Of a stretch of 64,000 nucleotides of DNA, positions 2,788 to 15,555 are shown piece by piece (position 1 is the first letter of the stretch; the number at the start of each line of letters is the position of its first letter). Below the pieces are notes generated by a model that saw only the letters and a program-made list of their open reading frames with translations, made no database searches and was not told the DNA's origin. This DNA comes from Eubacteriales bacterium (lineage in GTDB: Bacteria > Bacillota > Clostridia > Oscillospirales > CAG-272). The DNA is taken from contig JAZORT010000022.1 of NCBI GenBank assembly GCA_045656745.1, forward strand, positions 13,784 to 77,783, given 5' to 3'. A program made the position numbers and the translations under genes.

Positions 2788-2802
2788 CTAAAAAAGCGCC
2801 CC
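2788..2802. repeat. left copy of 15-bp direct repeat CTAAAAAAGCGCCCC (target duplication or att core)
   Basis: An identical 15-mer is at 15541-15555. The two copies bracket the AT-rich element. Confidence 0.75.
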
Positions 2803-2828
2803 TCTAAAGTTTATAATGTTATTTGCAA
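2803..2828 (+). repeat. left terminal inverted repeat (IRL candidate)
   Basis: TCTAAAGTTTATAATGTTATTTGCAA aligns 16/26 with the reverse complement of 15515-15540. The 11-nt core GTTATTTGCAA (2818-2828) is perfect and sits 15 nt from the direct repeat on both sides. Confidence 0.6.
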
Positions 2829-2866
2829 GGGAATTTCCTTTGCCGATAACATTTTTCTTTTTTCTT

Positions 2867-2884
2867 CCCCTCTGCGCAGAGGGG
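2867..2884. terminator. perfect 18-bp palindrome, bidirectional terminator-like
   Basis: CCCCTCTGCGCAGAGGGG is flanked by a T-rich run upstream and GTGGAAAAAGAAAA downstream, just inside the left end of the element. Confidence 0.4.
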
Positions 2885-3017
2885 GTGGAAAAAGAAAACT
2901 CCCACTTTAGCAAGGGTATAAATTCTTTTTATGCCCTTGCACCCCCTTGATACAATGCCGTATAGGCTTGTAAATATAATTTTATGGCAAATAGCCAAGA
3001 AAGTGAGGCACACTATT

Positions 3018-3248
3018 ATGATGTGTAATCTTTACAAAAAAGAATCGTCCTACAAGGACAAGACTTCGGGAGAGGAGAAAAAGGCAACGAGATTTTACCT
3101 TGAATGCGGTAGCACTCTTGTACCTATTGAGCCTACATACTTTGAGGATCCGCAGACCAAGAGAGATGCACAGTATTCGAGCCGTAAGGCAGTTATGAAG
3201 GCTTTCGCAGCAGACCTTCCCGCAAAAGAAGGCAACGTACACGCATAA
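3018..3248 (+). CDS. hypothetical protein (76 aa)
   Basis: Internal ATG of track ORF 2931..3248, preceded by GTGAGG. MMCNLYKKESSYKD... has no recognisable family. Confidence 0.4.
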   Translation: MMCNLYKKESSYKDKTSGEEKKATRFYLECGSTLVPIEPTYFEDPQTKRDAQYSSRKAVMKAFAADLPAKEGNVHA

Positions 3249-3260
3249 GGGGGTAAGATT

Positions 3261-3467
3261 ATGTTTATCAGACTTCCTACACCCAAAGGTGATTACTGCG
3301 TAAATCTCGCAAAGGTTCTTTTCTTCTATCCTAACAAAGAGTGCACACGTTTTGAAATGGAAGACGGTACAATTATTGACTTCAAGTTGAAGATTGATGA
3401 CGTACTTATACTACTATCTGAAGTAGGTTTCCAAATTCCGCACTACGCAAAAGACGAAGAAAAATAA
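3261..3467 (+). CDS. hypothetical protein (68 aa)
   Basis: ATG with AAGGGGG RBS. No recognisable motif. Confidence 0.5.
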   Translation: MFIRLPTPKGDYCVNLAKVLFFYPNKECTRFEMEDGTIIDFKLKIDDVLILLSEVGFQIPHYAKDEEK

Positions 3468-3473
3468 AAAGTA

Positions 3474-3630
3474 GGTGTAAATGGTGTATTCGGTGTATTT
3501 CACCGAGTACACCGCACGCCAATAAGCTCGGTTGCAATCTAATTAAATATATAGAGGCTATCGGGCGCTGAGGGCTTGTCCAGCGCCTCGGTGTATTGGT
3601 GTATTTGGTGTATTTCTAAAATCCGGTGTA
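3474..3630 (+). promoter_or_regulatory. iteron cluster plus hairpin: candidate double-strand origin / Rep-binding region
   Basis: There are seven direct GGTGTA(TT) copies (3474, 3483, 3492, 3590, 3598, 3607, 3625) and one inverted copy (TACACC 3508-3513). They flank the hairpin GGCGCTG-N10-CAGCGCC (3564-3587), immediately upstream of the rep genes. Confidence 0.65.
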
Positions 3631-3666
3631 AATCCGGTAAAAATACTTTCGCAGGGGGGTAAAAAT

Positions 3667-3999
3667 ATGCGAAACAATAAATCTTTACGAGTTTGTCATA
3701 TCGTCATTCCTGAATGGCGACTTCGTGTTAACATTGAAAAAGTAATAAAGTCAAAAGAATTTATACAGAGATATGTCTGTGTAAAACATAGCGGTGAAAG
3801 CATAGAACCGCATTATCATATTCATTTGGATATGAAACGTAGATTGCCTGTCGTTACTATAGCAAAGTGGTTTGTTCTCCCTACATCATCTATATTCGGT
3901 GTTTATTCTTCTGTTGATGATATTCGGTATATGTTAAAATCCAAAGAAGGTCAAGAAAACACCTTGATTTGTAGTTGCTATGAGAAAAAAGCATTGTGA
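3667..3999 (+). CDS. stand-alone RepB-like HUH nuclease domain protein (110 aa)
   Basis: EPHYHIHLDM (HUH) and DDIRYMLKS (Tyr motif) are paralogous to the N-terminus of the next ORF. GGGGGG RBS. It overlaps the next ORF by 20 nt. Confidence 0.65.
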   Translation: MRNNKSLRVCHIVIPEWRLRVNIEKVIKSKEFIQRYVCVKHSGESIEPHYHIHLDMKRRLPVVTIAKWFVLPTSSIFGVYSSVDDIRYMLKSKEGQENTLICSCYEKKAL

Positions 4000-13468: not shown

Positions 13469-13560
13469 TGTTTTTTTGCTCCTTTGTGCATAGTGCATAA
13501 TTTTAATTTTGATTAGTCAACCACCGAAATTTTGCGAAGTTCCGAAAATGTAAAAACCTC

Positions 13561-13589
13561 TTGAAATTCGGTGCTTTATGGTATATAAT
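13561..13589 (+). promoter_or_regulatory. sigma-A type promoter facing rightward
   Basis: TTGAAA (13561-13566), 17-nt spacer, TATAAT (13584-13589). It points into the structured region and the transposase gene, antisense to 13642..13803. Confidence 0.45.
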
Positions 13590-13641
13590 AGATATTGTCA
13601 AGGGGAGTGGGTGAAGCTCCCCCGACCAAGAAATAAAGGCT

Positions 13642-13803
13642 TTAGTCGGTTACTTTCTTCTTGGTGTTGCCTTGTTTTTCAAGGCAGATATAAATTCTTG
13701 AGAGAAGTTCTTGCGCTTCTCTGCATTGAGGGTGTTGTTGTATGTATGCCTCAATCGCAGAAATAAGCGTAGGGACTTCTTTCTTATTTACGAATAACTG
13801 CAT
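13642..13803 (-). CDS. hypothetical helical protein (53 aa)
   Basis: GGAGAAAGGAG RBS then ATG 13803. MQLFVNKKEVPTLISAIEAYIQQHPQCREAQELLSRIYICLEKQG... Confidence 0.4.
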   Translation of the reverse strand: MQLFVNKKEVPTLISAIEAYIQQHPQCREAQELLSRIYICLEKQGNTKKKVTD

Positions 13804-14007
13804 AACCGAAAAACTCCTTTCTCCACCGGAGTGGTTATTTTCTCCTTTCTGCCCGGTACACGATAGCACAGTAAGATTTCACCCCTCACGCACCCCACCA
13901 TTAAAAAGGTGCTCGCCTCTATGGAGAGAGAGGGCGCGCGCGCACCTCTGTGCCTACAACACATCGTGTTGCCAAGGAAAGTCAAGAACCGCTACTGCGT
14001 GGTGGAG

Positions 14008-14058
14008 ATTTATATAAAAAGTTTTTCCCCGTGTGTAAGAAAAACTTTTTATATAAAT
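14008..14058. repeat. perfect 20-bp inverted repeat with 11-nt loop
   Basis: ATTTATATAAAAAGTTTTTC (14008-14027), loop cccgtgtgtaa, then GAAAAACTTTTTATATAAAT (14039-14058). Confidence 0.85.
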
Positions 14059-14279
14059 ACGACCAGACGTTCTTTACTTTCCGCAGGGAATATGGTACAG
14101 CCTCGCAGGAAAAGGGGAGCCAACGGCACTTCGGAACCGTTGGGGAGAAACGCGGAGGAGTTTCTCACTCTGTCGTAATGTGCATAAAGTAATAAACACA
14201 AATTTGCCGTGAGGCAAAGAACAAACAACCGCCATAGCTGAAAAACCTCTTCCACCCCTAAAGAAATAAAGGGTATAGA

Positions 14280-14344
14280 GTGGGAGGGAGTCAGGCCGTG
14301 AGGAAAAGGAAAGGCGAGCAGCCGTTTTCCTCACGCCCTCCCAC
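14280..14344. repeat. composite hairpin (9-bp + 11-bp stems)
   Basis: GTGGGAGGG pairs with CCCTCCCAC, and CGTGAGGAAAA pairs with TTTTCCTCACG. There is an internal loop and a 17-nt apical loop. Confidence 0.75.
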
Positions 14345-14446
14345 CCACTCCGTAATCAACAAAAAAAGAAAAGGCTTGTCTATACCGCAAAGTATAAACA
14401 AGCACGAAAACTACGGCATATAGCCTTGAAAGGAGCATATCCAAAA

Positions 14447-15532
14447 ATGAGAAGAACCAAACGGAGTTATAAAACATTTAATAAAAGAACAAGGGATAAA
14501 CTGGAAGCATTGTATAATGCTGGACTTCCTGTAAAAAAAATAGCAGAAGAGTTAGGGTATACACATCAAGCAATTTATCATGAATTGAAACGCGGTTATT
14601 ATATGCATCGTAATACAGATTGGACGGAAACAAGAAGGTATTCAGCAGATAAAGCGCAATTGTCGGCAGAAATAAACGCTACGGCAAAAGGTGCGCCTTT
14701 AAAACTAGGTAATGATAAAACCTTTGCAACATTCGTCGAAGATATGATTAAAAAAGGATATTCTCCAGGAGCTATTCTTCTTTATATCGAGGAAAACGGT
14801 CTTAAATTCAAAACAAAAGTATGTCGAGTAACCTTGTATAGTTATATAGAAAAAGGCGTGTTTCTTAAAATTAGCAATAAACACCTTTTGCGAAAAGGAA
14901 AGAGAAAAAACAAGGCAGATAGCCGAAAGCTTTCTAAAAAGTTACCTAACATAGAACATTCAATAGAAAAAAGAACGCAAGAAATTAACTCTCGACAAAG
15001 TTTCGGTCATTGGGAAGGTGATACTGTTATAGGCACGTTGAAAAAGGGTGAGACTGTTCTTACACTTACAGAACGCCTCACCCGCGCAGAGATAATTATA
15101 AAATCTCCTGATAAAACATCGGCAAGTACGGTTAGAATGTTTAACCGTCTAGAAAGAAGAATAGGAAGTATAAACTTCTGCAAAATATTTAAATCTATCA
15201 CCTTTGACAATGGTACGGAGTTTTCCGATGCAGAGGGGATAGAGTTTTCCCCATACACACATAAACGCAGAACAACAGTTTATTATTGTCACCCGTTTTG
15301 TTCGTCTGAACGAGGTTCGAATGAAAATCAAAACGGTTTCATACGAAGGTTTATTCCTAAAGGAACACCGATTTCGAATTATTCTGTTGCATATATACAA
15401 AGTGTGCAGAATTTTATTAATGATTATCCAAGAGCAATATTTAACGGAGAAAACAGTACAAAACGGTTTCAAAAAGAATTATCAAAACTTAATATTAAAA
15501 TTTTTTTACACAATTTGCAAATAACTACTTGA
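14447..15532 (+). CDS. tnp: IS30-family DDE transposase
   Basis: N-terminal HTH (VKKIAEELGYTHQAIYHELKRG). DDE landmarks are HWEGDTV, FDNGTEF and NENQNGFIRRFIPKGT. AAAGGAG RBS before ATG 14447. The stop lies inside the right inverted repeat. Confidence 0.9.
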   Translation: MRRTKRSYKTFNKRTRDKLEALYNAGLPVKKIAEELGYTHQAIYHELKRGYYMHRNTDWTETRRYSADKAQLSAEINATAKGAPLKLGNDKTFATFVEDMIKKGYSPGAILLYIEENGLKFKTKVCRVTLYSYIEKGVFLKISNKHLLRKGKRKNKADSRKLSKKLPNIEHSIEKRTQEINSRQSFGHWEGDTVIGTLKKGETVLTLTERLTRAEIIIKSPDKTSASTVRMFNRLERRIGSINFCKIFKSITFDNGTEFSDAEGIEFSPYTHKRRTTVYYCHPFCSSERGSNENQNGFIRRFIPKGTPISNYSVAYIQSVQNFINDYPRAIFNGENSTKRFQKELSKLNIKIFLHNLQITT

Positions 15533-15540
15533 CATTCGCA
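15515..15540 (-). repeat. right terminal inverted repeat (IRR candidate)
   Basis: The reverse complement TGCGAATGTCAAGTAGTTATTTGCAA shares the 11-nt core with 2818-2828, at the same 15-nt offset from the direct repeat. Confidence 0.6.
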
Positions 15541-15555
15541 CTAAAAAAGCGCCCC
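15541..15555. repeat. right copy of 15-bp direct repeat CTAAAAAAGCGCCCC
   Basis: Identical to 2788-2802. Confidence 0.75.

Follow-up and report, generated by a model that had tools for sequence, protein, structure and literature searches.

A Rep-encoding mobile element of gut Clostridia with an IS30-family transposase at its right end and a host promoter beside its left end

Boundaries, ends and transposase of the element

The 64-kb window analyzed here, the whole stretch of DNA under study (positions 13,784 to 77,783 of contig JAZORT010000022.1, from a Eubacteriales bacterium), contains a 12.7-kb block that is a real, precisely bounded mobile element. The insertion occupies bases 2803-15540 (12,738 bp) and lies between two plus-strand copies of a 15-bp target-site duplication, the 15-mer CTAAAAAAGCGCCCC, at 2788-2802 and 15541-15555. 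These are the only occurrences of the 15-mer in the window, and no further copy appears when two mismatches are allowed. The 11-mer GTTATTTGCAA lies 15 nucleotides (nt) inward of the respective repeat copy, at 2818-2828 on the plus strand and at 15515-15525 on the minus strand. By itself the 11-mer is no rarity in the window (three matches with at most one mismatch, 2.2 expected); for an exact inverted 11-mer at equal offset from both repeats, the chance estimated from base composition is ~0.26^11, about 4e-7. When the 26-nt ends of the element are aligned, 16 of 26 positions are identical, with a perfect 11-nt core at positions 16-26. An earlier note on this DNA had described the exact repeat, the inverted 11-mers and the 16/26 match, and coordinates, strands and alignment were all recovered when the sequence was read again.

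The host features on both sides belong to a single intergenic region. The intrinsic terminator hairpin of a host DUF11 gene (16436->15588) lies at 15549-15571 on the minus strand with its T-tract within the duplicated 15-mer, and the left copy of the 15-mer, read on the minus strand, corresponds to the 3' stem arm and T-tract of the same terminator. On deletion of 2803-15555 the minus strand reads GCGCCTCAAGTAATTTGGGGCGC followed by TTTTTTAG (15571-15549), which restores the terminator of the DUF11 gene as the earlier note had reconstructed it; the distance from there to the next -35 hexamer is 11 nt, not the 12 given before. That hexamer belongs to a host sigma-70-type promoter, TTGACT-17-TAAAAT with a TG extension (2776-2748, minus strand), of an AP_endonuc_2-family gene (2720->1929). 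Its -35 starts 26 nt from the left tip of the element, and it fires away from the element.

The interior is AT-richer than its surroundings, and the break in composition proposed earlier is borne out. Its GC content is 39.2%, against 44.8% in the rest of the window and a minimum of 41.7% among 72 equal-size windows outside it, and tetranucleotide usage is the most deviant of the window inside the element, with the distance peaking at 4-12 kb. Leaving aside 4-kb tiles situated entirely inside the element, the tile at 40001-44000 has the most atypical tetranucleotide usage (L1 distance 0.26).

The left end (2803-2828, plus strand) consists of 9 nt, an inward -10 hexamer TATAAT (2812-2817) and the inverted-repeat core GTTATTTGCAA (2818-2828). 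The right end (15515-15540, plus strand) consists of the core TTGCAAATAAC (15515-15525), TAC, an outward -35 hexamer TTGACA (15529-15534) and 6 nt to the tip. Joining the ends would assemble, from the outer 15 nt of each, a predicted promoter that reads into the cargo; these stretches mismatch because they are opposite halves of it, with the -35 on the right and the -10 on the left. Elsewhere in the window the best local match to the right terminus is at 38846-38886 (TCAAGTGATTTTGCAAATTTTATCAAAAAACTTTCAATTTT), with no transposase nearby; this stretch is possibly just a promoter region.

Reading outward at the right end is a gene for a 361-amino-acid (aa) IS30-family DDE transposase (14447-15532, plus strand). 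It matches the NCBIfam equivalog NF033563 transpos_IS30 with 223 bits (cut-off 80) over residues 49-336 and HTH_38 in Pfam, and its DD(33)E triad is legible in the translation as WEGDT...FDNG-33 residues-ERGSNEN. The gene ends 8 nt from the right tip, and in every complete element that we delimited the transposase gene lies directly at the right tip. In the window copy its stop codon TGA (15530-15532) falls within the outward -35 hexamer, so that coding sequence and end signal overlap. No other recombinase was found in the element in Pfam, NCBIfam and PHROG scans, and no inverted-repeat partner for the right end was found next to the transposase gene. With 12,738 bp and about 15 genes besides the transposase, the element is not a compact, transposase-only insertion sequence (IS) of ~1-1.3 kb.

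Two palindromes adjoin the left end. The first (2818-2850) is formed by the core and a second, inverted and imperfect copy of it (GTTATTTGCAAGGGAA / TTTCCTTTGCCGATAAC); most relatives have a similar local hairpin on their own core, and the second copy may serve as an additional transposase site or form a leader hairpin. The other (2853-2898) is a long hairpin with 23-nt arms and no loop, laid out as T-run, GC-stem and A-run about 50-95 nt inside the left tip, and it is a terminator on neither strand. A GC-topped hairpin is kept at this position with differing sequences in most relatives (L003, L004, L009, L013, L029, L075 and L082), including one with a different replication module (L004), and is not evident in L018, L032 and L033. 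An origin, a packaging signal and a regulatory site are possible roles for it.

Relatives, the empty site and target choice

The element belongs to a very large, essentially undescribed family of gut Clostridia, which we traced through its 750-aa hallmark protein. This protein has 886 relatives in a 90%-clustered database, and no source assigns a functional name to any of them. A profile search returned 990 representatives at 50% clustering, 510 of them at E <= 1e-30; among 150 listed relatives most are full length, and ten divergent members have no Pfam match. A scan of species-representative genomes gave 78 loci, nearly all from uncultured Clostridia or Eubacteriales of human, ruminant, rabbit and chicken gut. 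An IS30-like transposase is present in 35 of 84 sequences (83 fetched loci plus the window), many of the sequences that lack it being contigs that end early, and in 32 of the 35 the 750-aa gene is followed by it on the same strand at a distance of 1-6 kb. One relative (L004) keeps the backbone and the left end and carries a single-stranded DNA-binding protein and a 517-aa protein (L004 805-2964) in place of the HUH Rep, indicating that the replication module is exchangeable between members. Searches of the whole element at near identity against phage and plasmid collections gave no match. The only phage-collection record with homologues of both the 470-aa and the 750-aa proteins is a 57-kb scaffold labeled 'Bacteriophage sp.' (MT835493.1), in which the two are adjacent and 34-35% identical to those of the element.

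Thirteen complete elements of 11,076-16,745 bp, including the window copy, could be delimited by direct repeats at conserved ends. The boundaries proposed in the earlier note gain from the 12 others, which lie at different sites with different duplications of ~15 bp. Seven of the duplications are exactly 15 bp; the others measure 14, 16, 16, 17, 17, 18 and 20 bp and are ambiguous by 1-5 nt because bases of tip and flank coincide. All complete elements have the right-end pattern core-N3-TTGACA-N4-7-tip and the left-end pattern tip-N6-11-TATAAT (or TAAAAT, TATCAT or TACAAT)-core. Perfect inverted cores of 9-12 nt occur in 8 of the 13, at positions 13-18 counted from the left tip and 16-17 counted from the right. 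Five different core sequences are represented (GTTATTTGCAA/GAAT, AAATGCAAA, TAAATGCGAAAA, CTATTTTAGAAA and GTTGAGTGAAT), which shows that left and right ends co-vary. With the duplication taken as 15 bp, the bases after the -35 and those before the -10 add up to 14-15 in all 13 elements. In one relative (L082) TTGACA is directly followed by an apparent direct repeat of 20 bp; to agree with the rest of the family, 6 nt of its flank would have to match the right tip by coincidence, or else this copy may have made a longer duplication. The outermost 3 nt of the tips (2803-2805 and 15538-15540 in the window; also in L001, L003 and L029) vary between otherwise near-identical ends, as TCT, TTT or TCC on the left and GCA, GGG, GCG or AGG on the right, and might be remnants of junction spacers.

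A joined form was found in one relative, L111, whose transposase, 750-aa protein and Rep are 80%, 72% and 56% identical to those of the window copy. Its assembly of 13,788 nt overlaps by 141 nt at its two termini (k = 141) and is circularly permuted so that the 470-aa gene is divided between them, which indicates a circle of 13,647 bp. The junction reads ...TTTGCAAATTACTAC-TTGACA-TTAGCG-GT-TCTAAAGTT-TATAAT-GTTATTTGCAAGG..., that is, right tip, 2 nt and left tip (in terms of the tips, ...CTTGACATTAGCG-GT-TCTAAAGTTTATAATGTTATTTGCAAGG...), and the 2 extra nt bring the spacing to exactly TTGACA-17-TATAAT. The circular junction that the earlier note had proposed to look for was thus found in this relative, as right tip-GT-left tip, rather than in the window copy. 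Excised genomes in GenBank of two phages with related transposases have the same arrangement between inverted cores, TTGACT-16-TAATAT in FP_Lagaffe and TTGACT-17-TATCAT in nd12. Scans of IMG/VR and of JGI metagenomes for the junction pattern returned ordinary host promoters only, from which the two ends were recognized as promoter halves, and a scan of IMG/VR with a 17-mer from the left end gave chance matches only.

The empty site was also found. In a metagenome contig from ENA (L105), whose flanking AP_endonuc_2 protein is 98% identical to that of the window, the intergenic DNA reads ...ctagtcaagatatttaAgcCTAAAAAAGCGCCCCaaattacttgaggcgcaaaag..., and the element is absent. The 15-mer is present there as a single copy, and the end of the DUF11 gene adjoins the AP_endonuc_2 promoter; this is the empty site that had been predicted, with one single-nucleotide difference. 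In a more distant genome (L106; flanking protein 85% identical), GNAT, DUF11 and AP_endonuc_2 genes are contiguous, the latter two 124 nt apart, and the element is missing. The same genome assembly that has the window's site empty (L106, JAZOVF010000031.1) carries a related element at another promoter (L009, JAZOVF010000023.1); its 750-aa protein is 92% and its transposase only 64% identical, and consensus promoters flank the inserted element at 25-26 nt from either tip.

The sites occupied by the family share a host promoter. We compared 15 sites, those of the 13 complete elements and of two further left ends (L004 and L005), and scored promoters by agreement at 9 or more of 12 hexamer positions. 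In all 15 a sigma-70-type promoter lies beside the left tip, reading away from the element with its -35 starting 25-29 nt from the tip, and the element has the same orientation; the spacer is 17 in 13 sites and 18 in 2. Elsewhere in the same flanks such a promoter occurs at 0.0068 per 5-nt window, and beside the right tip in 1 of 13 flanks. At 10 of the 15 sites, 82-154 nt separate the left tip from the start of an open reading frame (ORF) that has a ribosome-binding site and reads away. The duplicated 15 bp correspond to an AT-rich stretch ~10-27 bp upstream of the -35 hexamer, and with this stretch duplicated the host promoter retains its upstream region after insertion. The neighboring promoter is, on this pattern of sites, the probable target determinant. 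The element had earlier been described as landed in a terminator, which is literally so in the window; the constant feature over the 15 sites is the host promoter, and since a terminator is not common to the other 14 sites, the terminator target looks incidental. Targeting of inverted repeats or terminators in the manner of IS1630 suits the window site and fails at the other 14. We also rejected the idea that the target -35 serves as a pseudo right end: the TTGACA of the right end faces its tip at 6 nt, whereas that of the target faces away and lies 10-12 nt from the near cut.

Cargo genes, proposed mechanism and alternatives

Domain scans (Pfam, NCBIfam and PHROG) covered element ORFs of at least 85 aa plus one 68-aa ORF (3261-3467, plus strand), which is conserved in close relatives and has no similarity to the IS30 transposase in BLASTP. 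The best-defined product is a rolling-circle Rep (3980-5134, plus strand), in which an HUH endonuclease (Rep_OBD; HDKD...HYHIYL; YLTH) is fused to an SF3 helicase; the evidence consists of Rep_OBD and RNA_helicase matches in Pfam, PDB matches to CRESS-virus Rep helicases and the motif MYLTH in the sequence. A degenerate duplicate of its N-terminal HUH domain (34% identity over 91 aa) lies at 3667-3999 on the plus strand. In the same orientation follow a 235-aa protein with an N-terminal membrane helix and an Asp/Thr-rich region and then a strongly basic 88-aa protein (together 5086-6031), a 300-aa protein with an N-terminal membrane anchor (6038-6940) that is conserved across the element family and matches no database family, and a membrane-anchored or secreted SGNH/GDSL esterase (7001-7897) whose domain also matches phage tail-fiber and virion-protein PHROGs.

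The 470-aa protein (7902-9314, plus strand) has a signal peptide, a tandem beta-sandwich ectodomain, C-terminal membrane helices and a basic tail. Its structural model is good (predicted local distance difference test [pLDDT] 87.6), showing tandem beta-sandwiches and an anchor at the C-terminus; matches in the PDB are arrestin/Vps26-like beta sandwiches at a TM-score of ~0.1 and are generic. Precomputed annotation lists PF28147 for some of its homologues (P0230, P0232 and P0235) and our local Pfam gave no match; this may be a very recently curated family. Small single-helix membrane ORFs of 36, 52 and 36 aa come next (9321-10557, plus strand), the first ending in KKRRK, and then the 750-aa hallmark protein (10554-12806, plus strand), which combines a multi-pass membrane domain of ~290 aa with a P-loop NTPase (GEMGIGKT; ...ITEID) and has no relative in Pfam, NCBIfam, PHROG or PDB. 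Two small minus-strand genes of 89 and 116 aa (12882-13498) are conserved in relatives; the 116-aa product matches phrog_23592, of unknown function. Between these and the transposase gene, 13500-14446 is a stretch of ~950 nt without a convincing ORF or Rfam match, which contains a perfect palindrome with 20-nt arms (14008-14058) and a second hairpin (14286-14346). No tyrosine or serine recombinase, capsid, portal, terminase, lysin, relaxase or type IV secretion protein was detected in the scanned ORFs, nor any housekeeping gene, as the earlier note had said of the interior. Rfam and tRNA scans of the element were empty, which excludes a tRNA attachment site.

Taken together, 2803-15540 is very probably an integrated, autonomous rolling-circle replicon of a ~11-17 kb class, for which a captured IS30-family DDE transposase is the sole enzyme of integration and excision. 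The whole 12.7 kb behaves as a single mobile unit, being absent from the same site in the near-identical L105. The element would move by IS30-style copy-out/paste-in, in which the transposase would link the ends through a 2-nt spacer, giving a circle or a head-to-tail dimer; for the window copy the predicted junction is GACATTCGCA / TCTAAAGTTT with a spacer of 1-3 nt, and the predicted restored empty site is TATTTAGGCCTAAAAAAGCGCCCCAAATTAC. The junction would form a strong promoter into the left end, upstream of the plus-strand cargo (Rep, the membrane and structural genes and the NTPase), with the transposase gene 11.6 kb downstream of it. As this promoter would be assembled only at the junction, we propose that the cargo is boosted only in the excised form, and Rep would maintain the excised circle as an episome. 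At integration, the transposase would cut at both tips and attack AT-rich target DNA ~10-27 bp upstream of a sigma-A -35, with a 15-bp stagger and in one orientation. Such an insertion would break no gene, and the duplicated 15 bp would preserve the upstream region of the host promoter.

Several points weigh against this reconstruction. The circle comes from a relative, and neither a circle nor excision was observed for the window copy. The L111 contig might in principle stem from tandem copies instead of a monomeric circle; either form is a product of the IS30 pathway. The activity of the junction promoter is a prediction, and the dependence of targeting on the promoter, as opposed to adjacent AT-rich bent DNA, is likewise read from sequence. 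A 15-bp stagger is unusual for IS30 (2 bp), the only precedent in the family being IS1630 (16-26 bp), and the outermost 3 nt of the tips vary between copies. The identity of the cargo is weakly defined: it has no signature of capsid, portal, terminase, Zot/pI, relaxase or type IV secretion, IMG/VR yielded no relative of the 750-aa protein, and the AlphaFold model of that protein is poor (pLDDT 62), with Foldseek returning nothing below E = 3. A structural lead from the 470-aa protein also faded. In a Foldseek search of BFVD its best match was ORF1 of Acholeplasma virus L2 (probability 0.99, E = 4e-5) with a TM-score of only 0.16-0.20, and comparisons of element proteins with L2 proteins by hidden Markov models and hhalign showed no similarity.

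What the replicon is remains the part of this account most exposed to an alternative. The same insertion mechanism could serve an integrative plasmid, or a mobilizable or conjugative element, that is maintained by its Rep and whose 750-aa NTPase and surface proteins act in DNA transfer or in functions at the host surface. We give this a substantial chance, somewhat short of even. HUH+SF3 Reps with YLxH typify the integrated 'pCRESS' plasmids, which have no viral structural genes (PMC6668415), capsid, packaging and lysis genes were not detected in the Pfam and PHROG scans, IMG/VR holds no relative of the 750-aa protein, and a membrane-anchored P-loop NTPase could be a DNA translocase. On the other hand, Pfam and NCBIfam show no relaxase besides Rep and no VirB4, VirD4, FtsK or TcpA signature; the secreted or anchored, one-helix and basic proteins and the phage-type esterase domain resemble a virion or adsorption module; and what appears to be the same transposase clade serves bona fide phages. 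We lean toward a small, non-tailed, membrane-associated, temperate virus-like element because of the secreted and anchored proteins, the mini membrane ORFs (with KKRRK), the small basic protein and the virion-type esterase domain, and we favor it only slightly over an integrative plasmid. A bolder proposal makes the element the first recognized representative of a family of small, non-tailed, membrane-associated temperate viruses or virus-like episomes, whose domesticated IS30 enzyme would combine two traits not otherwise described for IS30-family transposases: insertion in one orientation upstream of promoters with a 15-bp stagger, and a split promoter complete only in the circle. This proposal is tentative, and we hold it to be possible rather than likely.

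A second alternative leaves the mobile replicon in place and concerns its targeting. The association with promoters could reflect selection, or a preference for AT-rich bent DNA, and not promoter recognition, if other insertions were lost or unsampled. The duplicated 15-mers are indeed AT-rich, and only surviving insertions are visible in a reading that rests on sequences. Selection against gene disruption, however, would fix neither the distance of the -35 to within 5 nt nor the orientation in 15 of 15 sites, and the right flank has no promoter signal (1/13). We consider this explanation unlikely.

The mobile unit itself could also be understood differently, as a composite transposon or a strict 'IScream' prophage in which IS30 copies at both ends mobilize the DNA between them. 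Such a class exists in gut Clostridia (PMC12823448), and the transposases of FP_Lagaffe, Saumur and nd12 share 40-49% identity with the one studied here. The window, however, holds a single IS30 gene (tblastn), the left-end ORFs have no similarity to its transposase, and tailed-phage genes are absent from the Pfam and PHROG scans, all of which make this reading very improbable for the present element. That only the ~1.1-1.3 kb at the right edge are mobile as an ordinary IS30 IS, next to an unrelated island of 11 kb and a coincidental left-end match, would suit the IS-like position of the transposase gene directly at the right tip and the commonness of the 11-mer alone, but can practically be dismissed given the lack of an inverted-repeat partner upstream of that gene, the empty site without the entire 12.7 kb, the 13 elements with the same long architecture, far-end duplications and co-varying cores, and the circular relative that contains the whole element.

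Relation to known systems and implications

The closest parallels to the replicon that we propose are the IScream prophages of gut Clostridia, which carry an outward full-length IS30 transposase at one end and a truncated IS30 at the other, have phage gene content and yield circular DNase-protected forms (Wirbel et al., Nature 2025, PMC12823448). The element resembles them in its gut Clostridia hosts, in the outward full-length transposase at one end, in the circular excised form found in its family, in a transposase 40-49% identical to the FP_Lagaffe, Saumur, nd12 and nd4 enzymes, and in the layout of -35, inverted-repeat core and -10 at the junction, common to Lagaffe and nd12. It differs in having no second, truncated, inward IS30 gene at the other end (tblastn of the window and BLASTP of left-end ORFs), no tailed-phage structural, packaging or lysis genes (the one match to tail-fiber and virion PHROGs being that of the SGNH esterase domain), and 12.7 kb with its own HUH+SF3 Rep. 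In a term search, the main text of the IScream paper gave no hit for target site, inverted repeat, direct repeat or promoter (PMC12823448).

IS30 itself moves by copy-out/paste-in via junctions between inverted repeats (IR-IR junctions) that form the strong promoter Pjunc (PMC9333248), and IS1630 of Mycoplasma fermentans, of the same family, makes duplications of 16-26 bp (PMC2853133, PMC3317919). The element shares with IS30 a DD(33)E transposase with an N-terminal helix-turn-helix, terminal inverted repeats, here with the outer 15 nt asymmetric (-10 versus -35), and a 2-nt-spaced junction of the ends that forms a promoter, as seen in L111. Unlike IS30, it is ten times larger, with about 15 cargo genes, it makes a duplication of ~15 bp as opposed to 2-3 bp, and its transposase gene lies far from a junction promoter that faces the cargo. 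Its target, too, is distinct: it inserts upstream of promoters, whereas IS30 uses hot spots or inverted repeats and IS1630 uses inverted repeats.

Promoter-upstream, oriented transposition has so far been described only for prokaryotic Mutator-like DDE transposases of the TnGBS and ISLre2 type, a specificity that was called unique among prokaryotic transposases (Guerillot et al. 2014, PMC3942029). In a limited literature search we found no published report of it for the IS30 family. As in TnGBS, insertion occurs at a fixed distance upstream of the promoter, and asymmetric ends go with oriented insertion. The distances differ, with the near cut 10-12 nt and the tip 25-29 nt upstream as against 15-17 bp in TnGBS, and the enzyme is of the IS30 family rather than Mutator-like (ISLre2/p-MULT 3-4) and is not accompanied by a conjugation module.

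Other large elements and small replicons share parts of this organization. ICE6013 is ~13 kb long and makes 3-bp duplications, and we know of no promoter targeting by it. This element of Staphylococcus aureus uses an IS30-like transposase as its recombinase (PMC7913919, PMC3942029), so that both are large mobile elements recombined by such an enzyme; ICE6013, unlike the present element, has a conjugation module. An uncharacterized Clostridiales cluster of integrated elements with HUH Reps had been noted earlier (Kazlauskas et al. 2019, PMC6668415). Like pCRESS plasmids, the element is integrated and has a Rep with a YLxH nuclease and an SF3 helicase and no recognizable viral structural proteins; pCRESS plasmids are site-specific in their integration, whereas here IS30 transposition leads into many unrelated sites with different duplications, and the element carries in addition the module of 750-aa, 470-aa and 300-aa proteins. 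Acholeplasma virus L2 (Plasmaviridae) is a temperate, membrane-associated virus with a genome of ~12 kb, a tyrosine integrase and replication by the host. Its ORF1 and the 470-aa protein both have a C-terminal membrane helix. Vespertilioviruses use IS3 and IS30 transposases (PMC6668415). In the element, no Zot/pI-type ATPase was detected with Pfam, and there is no sequence or profile similarity to L2 proteins.

Three features go beyond the published record: the 15-bp stagger, the split promoter into the cargo, and oriented promoter-upstream targeting by an IS30-family enzyme. For the transposase clade they supply a concrete and testable mechanism, with ends, a stagger of ~15 bp, a 2-nt circle junction and a junction promoter. 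Large mobile genomes of the gut that are borne by IS30 transposases thereby extend beyond tailed phages to a compact, Rep-encoding replicon family that is recognized by neither virus nor plasmid databases and occurs widely in Clostridia from the guts of humans, ruminants, rabbits and chickens, and two large orphan families, the 750-aa membrane NTPase and the 470-aa surface protein, gain a genomic context. Site-selective, gene-sparing insertion with a payload of 12-17 kb could interest developers of genetic tools for Clostridia. The targeting would represent a second, independent evolution of promoter-upstream, orientation-specific transposition, and with a second such system the question of how transposases find promoters becomes testable in another setting. 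If the bolder proposal is true, insertion at safe havens is a strategy on which the IS30-family enzyme and the unrelated TnGBS transposases have converged, possibly by reading promoter-bound RNA polymerase, and the split promoter that is complete only in the circle would act as a topological switch for the replication and morphogenesis genes of the family.

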